The notes beneath the pieces were generated by a model that saw only the letters and a list, made by a program, of their open reading frames with translations, did not search any database and was not told where the DNA came from. Shown here in pieces: positions 7,170-21,093 of a DNA stretch of 40,099 nucleotides (position 1 is the stretch's first letter; every line of letters starts with the position of its first letter). Source of the stretch: Candidatus Heimdallarchaeota archaeon (GTDB taxonomy: Archaea > Asgardarchaeota > Heimdallarchaeia > JABLTI01); contig JAHLVW010000009.1 of NCBI GenBank assembly GCA_019058275.1, forward strand, positions 1 to 40,099, in the 5' to 3' direction. Made by a program: the position numbers and the translations under genes.

Positions 7170-7934
7170 TCACATGTTATGTTTTTTAACAAATTCTTCC
7201 GCTCGAAATAGATCGTTTTTATAATTAATATTGAACCAAGGAATGTCTTCGAAGTCAGCAAAGGTTATTGTATATTTTTTTTCTATCCCCAATTTTACAA
7301 CATCCGTCCACCCAAAACGAAATTGTCTTTGTTCAAGCTCTTGAACAACTCTAAGTATAGTACTCTTAACTAGAAAGATTCCTGTATCAATTCTATTAAA
7401 TTCATTAATGTTCTTCCCAATTGTAATCACTTTATTCTTTTTTCCCAATATTTTTGTTGTGCTACCATTTACAATTTTATCATCATTGATGAACGGATCT
7501 GTTCCTATAACAATATCTGAATTATCATCTTTAGATAACAATTTACTAATAAATTTTTGAGAGTATAGATGATCTCCCATTGACAAAACGATTTTTTCCC
7601 CAATATTTAATACTGTTATTTGATTTAATCCAAGAAAACTACTATATCCATTTTCGCGTTCCAAATTATTGTTTATAAGATAGAAAAAATCTATTTTTTC
7701 ATGACTTTTTAAATATTCTTTTTTAATTTGTTCTAGATGATTTAAAAGAAGAGGTTCTTTATACCCTAATACAAAAACGATTTTAGTTATATCATTCTTG
7801 ATGAAATTATCAACAATATAATTGATTATTGATTTTTTATTGACTGCTATCATCGGTTTAGGCAGTTTGTATCCCGTTTGTTGAAGTCGATTTCCATATC
7901 CTGCGCAAAGAATTAAGCCACAAAAATTAGTCAT
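7170..7934 (-). CDS. NTP-transferase (LicC/IPCT-like sugar/polyol-phosphate cytidylyltransferase)
   Basis: ILCAGYGNRL...LPKPM, ERENGYS, LSMGDH, IDTGIF, WFNIN motifs. Confidence 0.85.
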   Translation of the reverse strand: MTNFCGLILCAGYGNRLQQTGYKLPKPMIAVNKKSIINYIVDNFIKNDITKIVFVLGYKEPLLLNHLEQIKKEYLKSHEKIDFFYLINNNLERENGYSSFLGLNQITVLNIGEKIVLSMGDHLYSQKFISKLLSKDDNSDIVIGTDPFINDDKIVNGSTTKILGKKNKVITIGKNINEFNRIDTGIFLVKSTILRVVQELEQRQFRFGWTDVVKLGIEKKYTITFADFEDIPWFNINYKNDLFRAEEFVKKHNM

Positions 7935-7953
7935 GTTACTCCACCAACTTGTG

Positions 7954-8946
7954 TTAGGTTTCTAATATAACTTTCTTGAGTTTCTCATAAATCTTGTTAG
8001 AATCATGTTCATCAACAATTCGTCTTTTTATCTTTTCAATCTTCTCATACTTTTCTTCCTTTGACATCCTCGATATTTCTATTACCTTATTTACAAAGTC
8101 TTCCTGTGAAGAAAAAATATTTTCTTGAGGGAGAAACTCTTCAACCCCATCCCAAAAGTGAGACAATGGGTAACACCCACATAATGCCCCCTCATGAAGC
8201 ATATAGTGGAAGCTTTCATGTACACTATTCCCTACAATAACATCCATGGAATTTAACCATTTATTTTTGTCTTCTACATAACCATAAATTATCACTTTAT
8301 CATCAAGTTCTAGTTTTTCTACAAGCTCTTGAATCATTTTGGTTTGATATTCTGTACCCTTACCACCAATGTGTAAGGTATACCCTCTATCTTTCTCTAA
8401 TAATTTCTTGAAAGCAAAAACCAGATCATAGATTCTTTTTCTCTCTAACATATTTCCTAGTATTGCAATTCTGCCATCAAAAGTTGTTTTCTCCTTTATA
8501 TCTTTAAACTCCTCAAGATTGATAGCATTATAGACAACTGTGCTTTTTTCCTTAAATTCAGGGTAATCCTCGATAAATCTTTTTTGCATCGCATAACAAA
8601 CAAAGATAACTTTGTTAACATTTTGCCAGTTTATTCTGCCTCTATTCTCAAAATAGTCACCCCGATGACACCTAGCAATAACCTTTCCTTTACGCCTTCT
8701 TTTTGTTACGTGATGTAGAATATCACCAACCCACTCAACGAAAATCACGTCCTTACGTAGATAAGATTGAATCTTAAAGGGAATATAAATCCTAAATGGG
8801 ATAGGAAGTTTCCTTGTTTTACTGTTAATTTCAACAGATGTAACTTTAAATGTAGTTCTAAACTTTTCTAATATATGTTGAAGGAAAAGACCATTGCCAA
8901 ATAGGAATGATATTTTCAGTTTCTTCAAAAAACGAAACCTCTTCAA
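7954..8946 (-). CDS. Glycosyltransferase family 4 (GT-B)
   Basis: TVVYNAIN, ILGNMLERKR, VIIYGYVED, NSVHESFHYMLHEGALCG (E-x7-E motif). Confidence 0.88.
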   Translation of the reverse strand: MKRFRFLKKLKISFLFGNGLFLQHILEKFRTTFKVTSVEINSKTRKLPIPFRIYIPFKIQSYLRKDVIFVEWVGDILHHVTKRRRKGKVIARCHRGDYFENRGRINWQNVNKVIFVCYAMQKRFIEDYPEFKEKSTVVYNAINLEEFKDIKEKTTFDGRIAILGNMLERKRIYDLVFAFKKLLEKDRGYTLHIGGKGTEYQTKMIQELVEKLELDDKVIIYGYVEDKNKWLNSMDVIVGNSVHESFHYMLHEGALCGCYPLSHFWDGVEEFLPQENIFSSQEDFVNKVIEISRMSKEEKYEKIEKIKRRIVDEHDSNKIYEKLKKVILET

Positions 8947-9424: not shown

Positions 9425-10204
9425 ATGAATGACGAAGAATTAGACTATGAGTTTCTCAACATTGAAGGAATCTATGCTTTGTTAGATGGTGATTACAAAA
9501 AAGCAGAAGAATTGTTCACTAAAGCAATCAAAATCGAAGATAATAGTTTTGAAAGTTTATGCAATATGGGTAAATTACTTTTGGTGCAAGGAAAGGTAGA
9601 TGAAGCTCTCGAATTCTTTGAGAAATCATTAGAAAAGAATCCAGAATATCCCGAAGCATTACACAATGTGGGAGTATCTTACTATAGAAAACAAGAACTA
9701 GAGAAAGCCATTAGCTACTATATGAAAGCTGTAGAAATAGATGATAAGTATTTTGAAAGTTGGTTTAATCTGGGAAATAGTTTTTACGAAAAAGGGGAAT
9801 TGCAAGAAGCATTGAAATATTACAAAAAAACAACTGAAGCAAATCCAAATTTTACAGATGCTTATTATAACTTGGGTAATGTCTACAGAGAACTTGGTCA
9901 GCATGCATTAGCAAAAAAAGCCTATCAAGATATTCTAAAGATAAGACAAGATGATGCAGCAGTTTACTATAATTTGGGATATGTTTTACAGATAACGAAC
10001 GATTTAGATGGAGCTATAGAGAATTACCAGCAAGCAATTAAACTAAGAGAAAATTATCTGAAAGCAATCCTAAATCTGGGAATTGCCTATCAAGCGAAAA
10101 ATAATTTCAGAAAAGCACTAATGTACTTTGAAAAAGCTCTCAAAATACAACCAGATTTACAGATAGTTCAGGAAAGAATTGTACAAATAAAGGAAAAAGA
10201 ATAG
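9425..10204 (+). CDS. Tetratricopeptide repeat protein (about 7 TPRs)
   Basis: 34-aa periodic ..NLG..Y...G....A...Y.KA....P motifs across the whole protein. Confidence 0.93.
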   Translation: MNDEELDYEFLNIEGIYALLDGDYKKAEELFTKAIKIEDNSFESLCNMGKLLLVQGKVDEALEFFEKSLEKNPEYPEALHNVGVSYYRKQELEKAISYYMKAVEIDDKYFESWFNLGNSFYEKGELQEALKYYKKTTEANPNFTDAYYNLGNVYRELGQHALAKKAYQDILKIRQDDAAVYYNLGYVLQITNDLDGAIENYQQAIKLRENYLKAILNLGIAYQAKNNFRKALMYFEKALKIQPDLQIVQERIVQIKEKE

Positions 10205-12992: not shown

Positions 12993-15962
12993 GTGAAGAT
13001 TATGAGGCAAGGAAAAAAACTCTCGATCTTTCTATTATCATTATTTATTCTCTCTGGTGTTGCTCCTGTAATTTTAGCTAATGCTACTCTTCCAGAAGCT
13101 ATTTTGCCAGATACAGTAATTTATACGAAAACAATTGTTGATTTAAATGGTGATAAATTAGATGACAAACTTATAATAGATTTAGAAGTAACTAACACGC
13201 ATTCTATCGATGTTGTTGTACTCTATGATCATGAGGTTAATTCTCTTGATAAATTGAGGTTAAGACGCTTAGGTGTTACATTCTCAGAAGAAACTTGGGA
13301 TTTAGGAAGGAGACTATTGGTATCAACCACTAAGGATGGACTTGAGGCCTTAGCAAAAATACCTGAAATTAATCTTATTACATCTGCTGAAAAAAGACAT
13401 ATCATGGTTGGAATTCTTGGAGATGATAATTCAGATTTAGCTGCACTTGAGAGATTTGAAGGTGCTCAAATTTTCTGGGGTGTTGGATGTGCAGTTGTTC
13501 CTTATTACACAGGACTTGAAAATGATATTGCACAATTAGGAACTTATACAGCTATTGCTGATACAACTGATTCCTATTTATACAAAATAGAAACTCCCCA
13601 ATCAACAACAACACTACAAGTAAATACATTAGTTACTGCAAATGAAATCAATATAACTGGATTGTGGGCTGATGGACATGATGGTACAAGTATAAGAGTA
13701 GGCAATATAGATACAGGTATTAATGAAAATCATGTAGATTTTGCTGGTAGAATAATATCTACAAAAAGCTTTGTTTCACCTGATTATGGTTATGACCATA
13801 CGGATGATACTATAATTGATTTTGATGGTCATGGAACTCATACAACTGGTATTATGGCTGGTTCCGGTGATGGTGACCCAAAAAATATTGGTATGGCACC
13901 TAACTCAAGCATTTACTTTGCCAAAGTTGAATCACCAGCAACATGGTGGTCAGTTATTGCTGCTTTGGACTGGTTAGTTAATAATAGAGATGTTGATGTT
14001 GTCAATTTAAGCTTTGGTGGTGGGGCTGGTGAAGCACCATCATGGAATATTGCTGAAATAGCTTTCAAGGTAGCAGTAAGAAAGACAGACACTCCTTGTG
14101 TAATATCAGCTGGTAATGAGGCTATGGAAGGTTTTGATAATTACTATAGTGTTAGTTCTCCTGGTTCAGTTCAAGATGTAATAACTGTAGGATCACTAGA
14201 TACATCAACTTCCTCTGAATATGGTATAAATGGATTTAGTAGTCGAGGACCTACTGGTCTAAATCTTGTAAAACCTGATGTTTTGGCTCCTGGGAATGAT
14301 ATTGTATCATGTTCCAATATAGGAAGTAGTTACATTAGCTATAGTGGTACTTCTATGGCTGCTCCCCATGTGGCTGGTGCTGTGGCAGTATTAATAGATG
14401 CTATGAAAAATCACAGTGTTTCTTATAATCCTGGCGTTATCAAAGCTGCTCTTCTAAAAACTGCTATTCCACTTGATGGCTTCACAGCACTAGACCAAGG
14501 TAAAGGTTACATAAATGTTGGTGCTGCATTAACCTATATTTTGAATGCAGAAAGAGAAGGCAATCTTCCTATTATTGGTTCTTGTAATCAAGATTTACAA
14601 CCAATCAAATTATTCGATAAATTACGACAAGGACAAATATCTGAACAATATCTAACCACAGTTTCACCATTTAGATATAATAAATCTCTTGCATTAAATG
14701 GAGATGCTGCACAATTCGTCACTATTACTAGTGATTTCCTAGGTCCTGAAACAGATGTCATACAGCTAACCTATAAAATACCAGTAGACGCAACAATTGG
14801 AACTTATACCGGTCAAATTGATTTTGTTTACAATGGGACAATATTGGATACAGTAGACATTGATTTTGATGTTGTTGAAAGCAATGGTCACAATATGCTT
14901 CTGAACTATCGTACAACAAATTACGGTATAGATCACATGTATGGGCAATATATGTATTATACTCAAGACATCTATGCTAATGGTTATGTTATTAGTGAGC
15001 AAAACATCACATTAAATGAAACAATCTTAGCTAATTATGACTGTGTTTGGTTCCCAGATCCTTTTGGTTATAAATTCCCACAAGGTGGTTATGGTGATTA
15101 TAGTATAAGAACAACATATAATCCATGGGCTTCTGGAGAACTAACAGCTCTGAATAATTATGTTGCTAATGGTGGAACAGTATTCTTTGCATTCATAGGC
15201 TACAGTTCAGAATTTATTGAAGGATATGGAACAATTGTTGGTGGTACTAATGTTTCTGTTATTAATGAGTTTACAATACCTTTTGGTATTGAAGTTCTTA
15301 CAGATGAATGGCCTGCGGTAACACCTGGTGTTGCTAAACCATTAGGTTCTCATGCTCTAACTGCTGGAGTTGTTGGTGTTGATCATTATGGTTGTTCATT
15401 GGAAATAACAGGTGATGCTGTTGCTGTTTCTAAATACGAAGATATTGTTTGTGCTACTTATCAACACGATAGTGGTGGTAGAGTCATTGTTCTTGCAACT
15501 AATTTCTGTCTAGATACTGAAGGCTATAAAGATAGATACAATGGTGGATTTACTAATAACACTATTTTTGCTATGAACTTGATGCGTTGGGCAACCTCAG
15601 AACATAAAATTAGAAGAACCAGTGTAACAAATGAAAGTGGAATCTATACTTTGACCTATGAATATTTATCAGGTCCTGGTCCAGATTTTGGTGGTTACGT
15701 ACTCTATTCAAACAAGACAGTTGTAGATTTAACTTGGACTGAAGTTTCAGATGGTATCTGGAAAACTGCTGTTAGCACACTTGGATCATCAAAAATAATT
15801 CATGTTTATCCTGAATGCGGAGAAACCGGTGTGGATGAATTTGATTATTATAAAATCTTTTTAACTGGAACTGATGAAAGTGGTTTTGGAGCTTTATCAA
15901 TAGTTTTAATTGCTGGATTTGGTCTTGCAGGTTGGTATTTGATCCTAAAAAGACGACGTTAA
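12993..15962 (+). CDS. Secreted, C-terminally membrane-anchored S8 subtilase, Site-1-protease-like
   Basis: Signal peptide; catalytic IDTG / HGTH / SAGN / GTSMAAPH; C-terminal alpha/beta domain; terminal TM helix + KRRR. Confidence 0.93.
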   Translation: [989 protein letters not shown]

Positions 15963-16599: not shown

Positions 16600-19500
16600 T
16601 TATTGTTTTTGAAAGATATTTGATCCTGGTGCATCTGGTGATATAACAAAAATAGTTCCTTTCTCTACTACTTGCATTTCAGATAAGTCTATCCCTGTAA
16701 CATTCATCATTGATAGGAATTTTCCATATTCTGCTAATGTTTGAATTTTCCTTCCAGAGATTAAGGACTTGAAAATATTATGCGTACACAATGAATCTTT
16801 TAATTCTACACCTATTGATCCCGTAACTGATTGTGAGATATCACTCATGACTTCCTTTTCAACAGTTGCATTTGTAAATAATACAACAACTTCTCGAGAC
16901 AGCTTTTCACTAACTAGAAGAACAGGATTGTCTGACAATGATAATCCTAAACAAGTTCCAATATGTCTACCATTTGTTGTTCTTACGCGCAGACATTCAA
17001 TTGGAAAGATCTCAGAAGGATAGAATACTCGAGAAGAATTCCTTAAAATTACACTTTTCTTACCTATTTTATCTACTGAACCTCCAGAAACAAAAACACG
17101 AAAAGTATTTAGTATTTCATTAGGTAAGATTGGAAATCCTCTATTTAATGAATAATTGATTAGTGTTCTTGGTTTTAATGCTTCACCTTCTGGTATTCTT
17201 AATTGCTTAGCGATTAGATATTTTACTAACCATAATCTCTCTTTAGGTTTGTCTTCTATAATTTCTAATCTATCAACGAGATAATTTACTAGTGTTGTAT
17301 CTGGTTCCCTTGTATCTATTAACAATAATTTACCCATTAATGGATGCTTAACAATAGCTATTACCTTACCAACCTTGATTCCTTGGCTTAAACAACATTC
17401 TTTACCGATTGGCGTTCTTTCACTTGTTATTAATTTTCCATCCCAAGGAGCTGTTCGATATGGTTGAGGTGCAACTATATTATCAGGGCTACAAATAACT
17501 GAACCATGTTTTATTCTAATCTTGTCAATTGGTACAATACCCAGTATCTCTTGAGAGTGTATCTGTTCTTCTGTTGGGTAATTTATGTTTCTGAAATTAG
17601 CAAATTCTTGAAGTCTAGTTATATGTAATGCTACATCCTTCTGAATTTGCAGTGATTCCATAACTTCACTGATAAGGTAATTCTTACGTTTCTCTGTGGA
17701 TTCCATATATTCTTCAGTTACCCATAAGGGCTTAATCTGATCGAAAATATTGTCAATAATTGATTGATCGGCTGATGCTTCAGAAACAAGAGTAAATCCA
17801 AGTTTATTCTTATCGAAAACAATTACTTCTTGTAAATACCCTAAAAATTCTCTTTTTACATCTTCAACTAAATTGAACAAAGCTTTTCCTGAAAGCTTCC
17901 ATGCTTCAGTTGCTGCTTCAAGTAATTTTGGTAAAATCATTGATGTTTTTTGTGGTTTAATTAAATCTTCTTCTACTTGATCAAGAATTTCTGGTTTTAT
18001 CTCTGCAGGAGTTACTATCTGTTCGGGTATTATTTCAGTTTCTGTTGTACTTATACCGAATTCCTGTGGCTCTTCTGTTATTTCATGTGTAATTGTATAA
18101 TCTGGTGGTGGAGCTGGTATATCCAAAACTTCCTCTGAGGTTTCAGTAACTACCATATCATCTGTGCTTTCAATATCCATCAGTTCTTCAGATGGAATTG
18201 CTTCAATTTCCTCGATCACAGTAATATCATTTGTTAAAACCTCAAGTTCTAATTCTTGTGGGGTTTCTGGTACCTCTATAGATCCGGGGAATTCTTTATC
18301 ATATGACTCAACAATTCCTTTTGTTTTCTTAAGATCAGAAGTTAAACTGCTAAATTCTGCTTTGCTTTCAACAGGTTTTGGTTGAGGTTTAGGTTTTTCT
18401 ACTTCAGGATCTATTAATTTTTCAAGCAATCCTTCATAAGATTCAAAAATAATTTGTTCTGTAAAAACATTCATTTGCTCTGTTGAACCATTAATGCTGA
18501 ATGGTTGACTGAAGTCTTCCATACCAATTATTTCTAAATCAAGTTTAGGTTCATAGATTGGTTGAGGTGTATCAGGAATCACAAATTCATCAGTAGGTTC
18601 TTCACTTACAGTTGAAGGCACTTCTTCTGGAATTGTAATAGAATCAGTTGTATCAATCAAGAAGTAGCTAATAGGATCATTAACTAACCCTTCTATTTCT
18701 AAAGTTTCTAGAAGAGGGGCGATTTGTTTCTTCTTCTTTTGAATTTCGATTGTTTGGTTTTCAGCTTCAATTTCGATTCCAAATTCCTCTGGAATAAACA
18801 AATCATGAGAATGATCTATCTTTAAAATATCATCTTGTAATAATGATAAGCAATTACAATACTCTTTGATATCATTGGATAAAATTCTAATATAAACTTT
18901 CAATTCATTTACAGATTGCTGAATCTCTAATAATTGCTTGAAATCTGGTAAACCATTTCTTGATTTTGTTGTACTTATTTCAAGTTGAGTTGTTTTTACA
19001 GTTGCAAGCATTTCAGCAAGTGCCTTCCTATATTTTTGTCTAATTTTAATTTCCTTTTGAAGGTCACTAGATAGCTCTTTCAATTCTGTTTCATTTGTAA
19101 TACCGTGACCGAATGAAAATCTAAGATAATTTTCTAAAGTGAATTTTAATAATTCAGCCTTTGAAGGATTGCGTTTCAGATATTTCTCACGTGCAGCAAA
19201 TCTGTTATGAGCTAACCTTAGGTCGAATTCAAGTGTTTCAATTTTGATATTGGCTGTATCTGTATTAATTTTCTTCTCAGCTTGTAAGATTTTTAATTTC
19301 TGAAGATTATGCTCTAAATTGTAAATATTTCGATCAAGTTCTTTTATTTCTCTTTCTATTTTTAAGTGTCTAAAGAATGTCCTTGGAACATTAAATGTTG
19401 GAAGAAGATCTTCAATTGAGATTCTTCCTACCAATCTATTTGCACTGAGAGGTATTTCTCTTGAATCAATTGCTCTTAGTAGGTCCTCTTCAGATATAAC

Positions 19501-19638
19501 GTTGGTATTTTTTAGCTGCTTTTCTAAAAGTTGCATGCGGTTTTCAAAATCCTCTGAATCAATTTCCTCGAGAGCATATTTTTTCTCAATCTCCATTATT
19601 TCTTTGAGGATATCAATTCTATTTCGCAAATGTATCAC
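16600..19638 (-). CDS. Large hypothetical protein: coiled-coil N-terminus, acidic Pro/Glu-rich linker, three PRC-barrel-like repeats
   Basis: Heptad-rich aa 1-270; E/P/T-rich aa about 290-560; repeats LSGKAL..EFLGYLQEV, PIGKEC..GIKVGKVIAI, LRVRTTNGRHIGTCLGL. Confidence 0.72.
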   Translation of the reverse strand: MIHLRNRIDILKEIMEIEKKYALEEIDSEDFENRMQLLEKQLKNTNVISEEDLLRAIDSREIPLSANRLVGRISIEDLLPTFNVPRTFFRHLKIEREIKELDRNIYNLEHNLQKLKILQAEKKINTDTANIKIETLEFDLRLAHNRFAAREKYLKRNPSKAELLKFTLENYLRFSFGHGITNETELKELSSDLQKEIKIRQKYRKALAEMLATVKTTQLEISTTKSRNGLPDFKQLLEIQQSVNELKVYIRILSNDIKEYCNCLSLLQDDILKIDHSHDLFIPEEFGIEIEAENQTIEIQKKKKQIAPLLETLEIEGLVNDPISYFLIDTTDSITIPEEVPSTVSEEPTDEFVIPDTPQPIYEPKLDLEIIGMEDFSQPFSINGSTEQMNVFTEQIIFESYEGLLEKLIDPEVEKPKPQPKPVESKAEFSSLTSDLKKTKGIVESYDKEFPGSIEVPETPQELELEVLTNDITVIEEIEAIPSEELMDIESTDDMVVTETSEEVLDIPAPPPDYTITHEITEEPQEFGISTTETEIIPEQIVTPAEIKPEILDQVEEDLIKPQKTSMILPKLLEAATEAWKLSGKALFNLVEDVKREFLGYLQEVIVFDKNKLGFTLVSEASADQSIIDNIFDQIKPLWVTEEYMESTEKRKNYLISEVMESLQIQKDVALHITRLQEFANFRNINYPTEEQIHSQEILGIVPIDKIRIKHGSVICSPDNIVAPQPYRTAPWDGKLITSERTPIGKECCLSQGIKVGKVIAIVKHPLMGKLLLIDTREPDTTLVNYLVDRLEIIEDKPKERLWLVKYLIAKQLRIPEGEALKPRTLINYSLNRGFPILPNEILNTFRVFVSGGSVDKIGKKSVILRNSSRVFYPSEIFPIECLRVRTTNGRHIGTCLGLSLSDNPVLLVSEKLSREVVVLFTNATVEKEVMSDISQSVTGSIGVELKDSLCTHNIFKSLISGRKIQTLAEYGKFLSMMNVTGIDLSEMQVVEKGTIFVISPDAPGSNIFQKQ

Positions 19639-20604: not shown

Positions 20605-21093
20605 TTATCCTTGTAAATTCTCAAGGATAAAAAGTAATTCTTCTGCCAAAGTTGGTTTACTTTTAGGATTTTCAATCATCTCTCCAACTTGTTCACCTGA
20701 AGAATTTAAAATATAAAATGTAGGTATTTTTCGTAAATCAAATTCATCTACCTCAGGAGGAGAGGGAGGAATTCGCCATCTTACATCTGGATCTAAAGGA
20801 GCAGATTTAATGCTTTTGAAAAAGATAGCATTAATACTTGGTTTTTTCTTAACAATTTTAGCAAATTCAGCAACATACTTTTTACAATCTTTACACCAAT
20901 CTGCAGAAAATACAACAAATGTATGACAATTAACTATATCTTCTAATCTTTTTATTATGTCATCATTTGGTTCGTAATTTTCATAGGTATCCCTTAAGAT
21001 GTCTCCATGTTTTCCCTCTAACTTTGCTAGCATTTCATCTACATTCAAACCTGCTTTCTTAAGCTTAGTAATATCATGTTTAATCATTGTCAA
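20605..21093 (-). CDS. Thioredoxin-family protein
   Basis: FSADWCKDC active site; IPTF cis-Pro motif; MIENP...LAEEL. Confidence 0.88.
   Translation of the reverse strand: MTMIKHDITKLKKAGLNVDEMLAKLEGKHGDILRDTYENYEPNDDIIKRLEDIVNCHTFVVFSADWCKDCKKYVAEFAKIVKKKPSINAIFFKSIKSAPLDPDVRWRIPPSPPEVDEFDLRKIPTFYILNSSGEQVGEMIENPKSKPTLAEELLFILENLQG

Follow-up and report, generated by a model that had tools for sequence, protein, structure and literature searches.

The protease gene and its domain layout

The window analysed here is the whole stretch of 40,099 nucleotides (positions 1 to 40,099, forward strand, of contig JAHLVW010000009.1 from a Candidatus Heimdallarchaeota archaeon), and the gene under study is a subtilase gene on its forward strand, which was compared with the eukaryotic site-1 protease (S1P; SKI-1/MBTPS1). 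The opposite strand of the open reading frame (ORF) is full of stops, and a database entry for an S8 peptidase from a Candidatus Heimdallarchaeota metagenome-assembled genome (MAG) has exactly this protein sequence. The frame opens with GTG at 12993, but translation may really begin at an in-frame ATG at 13002 (residue 4), which is kept across the family. The coordinates of all features are collected in Table 1.

An earlier note on this DNA, made from its letters alone, had described a protein of 989 amino acids with a signal peptide, a long prodomain, an S8 domain, a beta-rich linker, an alpha/beta domain, a single transmembrane (TM) segment and a basic tail. Analysis of the sequence, Pfam and AlphaFold2 recovered every one of these features. 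The AlphaFold2 model was template-free, was computed from an alignment of 30 homologues (40-90% identity), and reached a predicted local distance difference test (pLDDT) value of 82 and a predicted template modelling (pTM) score of 0.73; the linker that follows the signal helix is poorly predicted. The model divides the pro-region into two units of the same beta-alpha-beta-beta-alpha-beta fold, and structural alignments of the second unit to pro-subtilisins and to ProN-Tk-SP (of Tk-SP from Thermococcus kodakarensis) begin at model residue 131-135. The second beta sandwich carries an invariant E941-C942-G943 motif, and the full-length protein contains 13 N-x-S/T sequons.

Pfam analysis of the window protein returned Peptidase_S8 (PF00082) alone, matching residues 232-499 with an E-value (E) of 8.6e-47 and a score of 160.3 bits (cut-off 21.8). 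Membership of peptidase family S8 is given by this match above threshold together with the full set of D240, H280, N375 and S454, which align with the catalytic and oxyanion-hole residues identified in S1P (PMC11231238). Since these four residues are invariant in the 30 homologues, the enzyme looks catalytically competent, and judged from its sequence the protease is apparently active.

Table 1. Position of the protease gene, its predicted domains and catalytic residues, and neighbouring genes in the window
Feature	Coordinates	Strand	Basis or remark
Nucleotidyl transferase with GT4 glycosyltransferase	7170..8946	-	
TPR-repeat protein	9425..10204	+	
Upstream neighbour, 423 aa	11525..12796	+	Cys-rich zinc-ribbon-like motifs at both ends
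Whole ORF, pre-pro-subtilase, type-I membrane-anchored, 989 aa	12993..15962	+	GTG start
Signal peptide, residues 1-30	12993..13082	+	Hydrophobic core, then ANA followed by T; hydropathy; model helix 3-30
Pro unit 1, residues ~70-132, beta-alpha-beta-beta-alpha-beta	13200..13388	+	Model (72-131)
Pro unit 2, residues ~133-200, subtilisin-type propeptide adjoining S8	13389..13592	+	Model (135-197); structural alignments
Peptidase S8 catalytic domain, residues 216-520	13638..14552	+	Pfam; PDB matches; model
Catalytic Asp240 (DTG)	13710..13712	+	Invariant, n=30; aligned to S1P catalytic Asp
Catalytic His280 (HGTH)	13830..13832	+	Invariant, n=30; aligned to S1P HGT
Oxyanion-hole Asn375 (SAGN)	14115..14117	+	Invariant, n=30; aligned to S1P oxyanion Asn
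Catalytic Ser454 (GTSMA)	14352..14354	+	Invariant, n=30; aligned to S1P GTSVA
Immunoglobulin (Ig)/PapD-like beta sandwich, residues 521-632, at place of S1P 'P-like' subdomain	14553..14888	+	Model
GIFT (GATase-like alpha/beta) domain, residues 633-870	14889..15602	+	Family profile, hhalign, Pfam tallies, model
Second beta sandwich, residues 871-958, stalk between GIFT and membrane	15603..15866	+	Model (872-956)
TM helix, residues ~963-985	15879..15947	+	Model; hydropathy
Short basic tail KRRR, cytoplasmic, and stop codon	15948..15962	+	Sequence
Downstream neighbour, profilin-like, 120 aa	16180..16542	+	Pfam Profilin E 1.6e-4
1012-aa protein, convergent with protease/profilin pair	16600..19638	-	No Pfam match, no hydrophobic helices
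Thioredoxin-like protein	20605..21093	-	

Similarity to eukaryotic site-1 protease

Human S1P consists, in order, of a signal peptide, A and B pro-domains, the S8 domain, a 'P-like' sandwich (479-616), a GIFT domain (617-998), a TM helix and a short tail (PMC11231238). According to the model, the window protein follows the same order from the signal peptide through the short basic tail. Structural comparison bore out this likeness: human S1P ranked first in a Foldseek search of PDB and was matched over the whole head (9csd_A, E 3.1e-35 over 760 columns; 8uw8_A, E 4.2e-32), and the matches that followed, at E 1e-25 and weaker, covered the catalytic part only. VIA-align superposed 588 residues of the model (209-874) on S1P chain 8uw8_A (190-875) with a root-mean-square deviation of 3.9 Å and a Z score of 41, whereas other PDB chains aligned over 363 residues at most, human S1P thus being the sole solved structure that covers the whole head. 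The alignment to 8uw8_A stops at model residue 874, and the range matched by 9csd_A reaches 953.

At the sequence level, the window protein alone reached S1P in PDB through the S8 domain only (E 6e-19, below Tk-SP and subtilisins); a direct search of PDB with its C-terminal half gave no matches, and a profile of the close family reached only IFT52, weakly. A broader profile of the sandwich and GIFT region, built from 95 sequences, matched human S1P residues 602-852 with its positions 97-314 (E 1.9e-14), and it matched the GIFT domain of IFT52 (5FMR) equally well (E 8.7e-15). Membership of the GIFT superfamily is supported by these two matches and by the profile comparison of the Asgard S8-linked GIFT with non-S8 GIFT domains (hhalign, E 1e-36). 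A word-index search with the broad profile for longer relatives returned no eukaryotic S1P. In a protein-language-model look-up the second-ranked match was a cluster of plant S1P, but its score of 0.84 is under the trust level and it is taken as a lead only.

Real eukaryotic S1P sequences were obtained by scanning metagenome contigs for the S1P-specific peptide GDH-x-HTNF. The scan gave 119 loci, several of them with uninterrupted S1P-type ORFs of ~1000-1170 aa, and eight of these were used. All eight carry MBTP1_N, Peptidase_S8, MBTPS1_3rd and MBTPS1_4th far above threshold, and one of them matches residues 98-989 of human S1P at E 1.8e-290. Comparison by hhalign of the 30-sequence family with the eight S1Ps gave a probability of 100 and an E of 6.8e-39 in a single collinear block of 574 columns, which aligns residues 216-843 with S1P 219-883 and spans S8, sandwich and GIFT domains. 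With the S8 domain left out, the probability was still 98.9 (E 1.2e-17, 281 columns). The collinear similarity beyond the catalytic core, which the earlier note had described as four motif pairs with human S1P, was thereby reproduced for all four, both in the family profile and in the alignment to the eight S1Ps.

Searches that start from the S1P side were less sensitive. The S8 domain of S1P did find the window gene as its best match in the window's genome (67.8 bits, with the other two S8 genes at 56.9 and 53.7), while the C-terminal sequence and C-terminal profile of S1P found nothing in that genome; the same profile found no other GIFT protein in PDB and reached Asgard proteins in the local protein set at only ~20 bits. 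From these weak or null results it follows that the link between S1P and the Asgard proteins is visible only from the Asgard side or in profile-profile comparison. The profile of the Asgard S8-linked GIFT detects the GIFT domains of both IFT52 and S1P (~1e-14), whereas the S1P profile, searched against PDB, detects neither IFT52 nor the Asgard proteins, and the archaeal domains therefore appear as intermediate sequences between the two eukaryotic GIFT families.

Distribution, phylogeny and gene neighbourhood

When 1.84 billion representatives were searched exhaustively with a profile, 218 relatives were obtained, most of them ~1000 aa long with S8, C-terminal module, TM helix and basic tail. 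The sandwich-GIFT profile matched 144 of the 151 Asgard genomes sampled (71/72 of those of good quality), in 52/52 genera and in 27 families; each genome has 1-12 copies, and most of the ORFs concerned measure 660-1400 aa. The named relatives belong to Heimdall-, Thor-, Odin-, Njord-, Gerd- and Baldrarchaeota, with the exceptions of one 'Bathyarchaeia' and one 'Zixibacteria' label. The 'Bathyarchaeia' MAG (L013; DATKZI010000061.1, genome G151) has the same protease, paralogue and profilin neighbourhood as the window; because its gene set and neighbours match those of the Heimdallarchaeal window, its label is probably wrong.

The family also includes other forms. Nine members of ~1230-1280 aa (P0219-P0224, P0250, P0256 and P0319), of which the P0224 cluster is named Baldrarchaeota, have a zinc-ribbon (PF13240) N-terminus ahead of S8 and GIFT; P0162 (~1272 aa), named Odinarchaeia, is without a recorded zinc ribbon, and in P0137 a double zinc ribbon stands at the C-terminus instead. 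A shorter form of ~610-680 aa (P0062, P0091, P0098, P0111, P0121 and P0147) ends directly after the GIFT domain and, lacking stalk and TM helix, is presumably secreted. Among these, P0098 is named Thorarchaeota, and the related 735-aa P0110 is the protein labelled Zixibacteria. The window's genome itself holds a second S8-sandwich-GIFT gene in a 754-aa open frame (G000:C2:65608-66792, minus strand), a third S8 gene that is long-branched and gave no GIFT match (G000:C78:12842-13513, plus strand), and GIFT-only ORFs on contigs C1 and C52.

The tree of the S8 domain alone (86 rows) had a weak backbone. A constrained tree that unites all GIFT-bearing S8s and S1P in one clade, against 21 of the nearest non-GIFT S8s, was not rejected by the approximately unbiased (AU) test (p-AU 0.83) and exceeded the free quick tree by 22.7 log-likelihood (lnL) units. 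A tree built from all three domains (63 rows, 720 columns) gathered the eight eukaryotic S1Ps in one tight clade (support 100), with a stem 2.1 changes per site long, beside a subset of the Asgard sequences. S1P fell within a split (support 97) together with seven Asgard proteins, its partners including P0179, named Thorarchaeota, and P0160, whose cluster is named Heimdallarchaeota, while the window protein lay in a separate clade (100) inside a group of 35 (99). When 11 non-GIFT S8s were used as outgroup, the tree showed a lineage A (support 96) with the window gene and a lineage B (Shimodaira-Hasegawa-like approximate likelihood ratio test, SH-aLRT, 88) with S1P. Matches to the S1P-specific Pfam model MBTPS1_4th, below threshold at 17-24 bits, were found in 5/7 proteins of lineage B.

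Forcing S1P and the window subfamily into one clade (32 rows, LG+G4) cost 26.6 lnL units and was marginally rejected (p-AU 0.032). The expectation of the earlier note that the window protein would branch near eukaryotic S1P in an S8 phylogeny was not borne out, S1P joining another Asgard subgroup. With S1P placed in lineage B and the window gene in lineage A, the gene is probably a paralogue-level relative of S1P, a homologue in architecture and not an orthologue.

The gene order around the protease is conserved in eight related genomes and comprises the 423-aa protein, the protease, the profilin-like gene and the convergent 1012-aa protein. The 423-aa protein belongs to no Pfam family and shows 47-65% identity in seven related loci, with a partial copy of 93% in the eighth. 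It has hydrophobic helices at ~58-76 and ~85-108, separated by a loop of ~8 residues, and a long helical middle part, a topology that recalls a hairpin membrane-tethered regulator. As a substrate of the protease it was set aside, its outer loop having ~8 residues and no Arg. The profilin-like gene, separated from the end of the protease gene by 218 bp, scores 22.2 bits against a Pfam cut-off of 25; copies 79-95% identical to it occupy the same position in eight related Heimdallarchaeal loci. The 1012-aa protein is found in the same place in related loci at 55-92% identity.

Origin of the protease module and comparison with known systems

The family is, as a whole module, homologous to eukaryotic S1P. 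The explanation that we favour, at a probability of roughly three in four, is that the window gene encodes a surface, membrane-tethered pre-pro-subtilase of an Asgard family that shares descent with S1P as a module, S1P having come from, or being sister to, another branch of this family. Several observations weigh against this explanation, beginning with the fact that no single domain is specifically S1P-like. In the S8 domain, an S1P profile scored actinobacterial S8s that have no GIFT domain at up to 151 bits and the Asgard S8-GIFT proteins at no more than 137 (subfamily median 100; best non-self PDB chain 119), and the family S8 profile matched in PDB Tk-SP at 217 bits and subtilisin BPN' at 157 ahead of S1P at 140. 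The first sandwich, folded alone (pLDDT 89), adopts a generic Ig/PapD-like fold. It superposed on S1P 478-618 with Z 8.6 over 106 residues at rank 14, compared with Z 9.9 for Vpr, 8.2 for tripeptidyl peptidase II and 10.4 for the top match; S1P was not among its best 50 Foldseek matches, and hhalign of the archaeal sandwich against the third-domain sandwich of S1P gave a probability of 2% and no sequence signal.

The GIFT domain tells the same story. The GIFT of S1P is matched as well by non-S8 GIFT domains (E 2e-17, score 121) as by the Asgard S8-linked GIFT (E 3e-16, score 106), and a specific relation of the archaeal domain to S1P was not supported, since generic GIFT domains match it better than S1P does (E 1e-36 vs 3e-16). 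The Pfam tallies in the 95 relatives agree, with IFT52_GIFT in 28, ABC_transp_aux in 25 and DUF4350 in 10, each more often than MBTPS1_4th. None of the S1P-specific Pfam models was matched above threshold. MBTPS1_4th (PF23090, cut-off 27 bits) had no match in the window protein and matched 7/30 subfamily members with a best E of 1.8e-4, as compared with 341-464 bits for true S1Ps; MBTPS1_3rd (PF23094) had no match in the 30 or the 95 relatives; and MBTP1_N (PF23001) had none to residues 1-230 at E up to 10, in line with the alignment of the family to S1P, which starts only at residue 216, past the pro-region. As to the trees, backbone supports were moderate, the tree searches were of the 'quick' type and the outgroups were the S8s nearest the window protein, not those nearest S1P. 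Long branches lead both to S1P, whose stem is very long (1.7-2.4 changes per site), and to every one of its Asgard partners, so that the placement of S1P may be an attraction artefact.

With every domain individually generic, the case for common descent lies in the way the domains are combined and in their geometry, both of which are shared with S1P. The most serious competitor is independent assembly, by which a generic S8 domain, an Ig-like sandwich and a GIFT domain would have been joined to a membrane anchor separately in Asgard archaea and in early eukaryotes, so that the architectures are convergent. It agrees with the finding that S8, sandwich and GIFT each resemble unrelated carriers of the fold at least as much as they resemble S1P, with the commonness of sandwiches after S8 domains (Vpr, tripeptidyl peptidase II, Tk-SP) and with pro-regions in which no similarity to those of S1P is detectable. 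Such convergence would, however, have had to arrive twice at the same domain order and relative placement over 588 residues, as seen in a template-free model, and at a TM helix with a basic tail on both the archaeal and the S1P side. Among the 120 nearest S8 relatives listed, moreover, no GIFT match was found outside the S8-GIFT group, and constraining the tree to unite S1P with all GIFT-bearing S8s improved the fit over that of the free quick tree. Independent assembly is considered less likely, yet a serious rival.

Far less probable is that the protein is a true S1P orthologue, which would cleave some membrane-tethered regulator at a site of the R-x-x-L type and pass it to an M50 site-2 protease. 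The S1P-like head, the three M50 matches in the window's genome (in two ORFs) and the 423-aa upstream hairpin protein, whose cytoplasmic zinc-ribbon-like ends give it a topology reminiscent of SREBP, would all suit this idea. It is opposed by the AU test, by the grouping of S1P with other Asgard proteins and by the short, Arg-free outer loop of the 423-aa neighbour. The search for M50 proteases advised by the earlier note did find them, but they occur likewise in 14/14 control genomes, which makes their presence uninformative.

The processing and specificity determinants of S1P also argue against orthology. The RRLL that the earlier note had read as a possible echo of the S1P autocleavage motif is present at residues 106-109, but it lies within the predicted strand 107-112 of pro unit 1 instead of at a domain junction, and only 2/30 homologues have R-R-[LI]-L at this position, the rest having RR[VI]x or similar. 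At the pro/mature junction (196-218) there is no conserved basic residue, nor an Arg in any of the 30 homologues. Of the four S4-pocket residues named for S1P (PMC12067269), a manual reading of the hhalign register gave a like counterpart for one, D312, which corresponds to E347. In the same register, T286 of S1P falls in an S1P-specific insertion. An acidic residue after the oxyanion Asn is common to S1P and the archaeal protein, and is also common among subtilisins. An S1P-like R-x-x-L specificity is thus neither supported nor contradicted by the sequence, and any part of the protein in regulated intramembrane proteolysis is speculative.

Reverse transfer, that is the origin of the Asgard genes from a horizontally acquired eukaryotic S1P, would accord with a published hypothesis of a eukaryotic origin of S1P that was framed without Asgard sampling (PMC6713707), but it is the least credible of the alternatives given the module's presence in 144/151 genomes and 27 families with several deep paralogous lineages, the tight clade of the eight S1Ps beside an Asgard subset, and an Asgard GIFT that is much closer than that of S1P to prokaryotic stand-alone GIFT domains.

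Under the favoured explanation of a membrane-tethered Asgard protease homologous to S1P as a module, the signal peptide would export the protease and the single C-terminal helix would keep it tethered on the outside of the cell membrane, with the four-residue basic tail inside the cell. The S8 domain, Ig-like sandwich and GIFT domain are modelled to pack as in human S1P, the GIFT domain presumably bracing the S8 loops around the substrate cleft as it does there, and the second sandwich would form the stalk to the membrane. The enzyme is expected to remove its own pro-region, after which the mature form could cut exported or membrane-bound proteins near the membrane, as a sheddase or maturase; it probably trims or sheds exported proteins there. 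The S8-sandwich-GIFT-TM body plan would then predate eukaryotes, with eukaryotic S1P derived from, or sister to, lineage B and the window gene in lineage A. The earlier idea of an Asgard precursor of S1P is accordingly tenable for the wider family but not supported for the window gene, which sits on a side branch. That the pan-Asgard family is the archaeal stock of eukaryotic S1P, by way of lineage B, is put forward tentatively, at somewhat less than even odds.

In eukaryotes, SREBP, ATF6 and plant bZIP17/28 undergo a regulated intramembrane proteolysis that S1P starts, and lysosomal-targeting and viral glycoproteins are further proteins that it processes. An Asgard family that is nearly universal and has the same head, anchor and tail offers a plausible prokaryotic root for this enzyme and a simple model in which to ask about the role of a GIFT domain in a protease. 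If descent by way of lineage B holds, S1P would be an Asgard-derived eukaryotic signature protein and not a eukaryotic invention, and juxtamembrane cleavage could predate eukaryotes, in an archaeal ancestor. Our literature search found no report joining S1P and Asgard archaea; the origin of S1P (there called SBT7) had been placed within eukaryotes as a hypothesis, with Asgard archaea unsampled (PMC6713707). To this the present analysis adds a direct test against real eukaryotic S1P sequences.

Among known systems, the best sequence matches of the catalytic domain are to Tk-SP (Thermococcus kodakarensis; PDB 3AFG, 9UES) and the classical subtilisins, at E 1e-32 with the single sequence and 3e-63 with the family profile, and with 37% identity over 300 aligned residues. 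These enzymes share the subtilisin-type propeptide with the window protein, but they are secreted and have neither GIFT domain nor membrane anchor. The post-catalytic sandwiches of Bacillus Vpr (8JMW) and tripeptidyl peptidase II (3LXU) superpose about as well as that of S1P, although both proteins are without a GIFT domain and a TM anchor. The GIFT domains of IFT52, GldG-type ABC auxiliary proteins (PF09822), DUF4350 and OST48 belong to the same fold family as residues 633-870 and occur alone or in other contexts, whereas the archaeal GIFT is fused behind the protease and packed on it. S1P itself (plant SBT6.1, also SBT7; PDB 8UW8, 8UWC, 9CSD) shows ~18-23% identity to the archaeal protein. 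It has insertions without archaeal counterpart in the GIFT domain (e.g., the DENTRxWW segment) and in S8, its R-x-x-L autoprocessing site has no conserved counterpart at the archaeal pro-domain junctions, and its endoplasmic reticulum/Golgi setting is absent from the archaeon. The archaeal protein, unlike S1P, has an additional folded beta-sandwich stalk ahead of the TM helix, while the two-part pro-region, the single TM helix, the short basic tail and the aligned catalytic Asp, His, Asn and Ser are shared by both.

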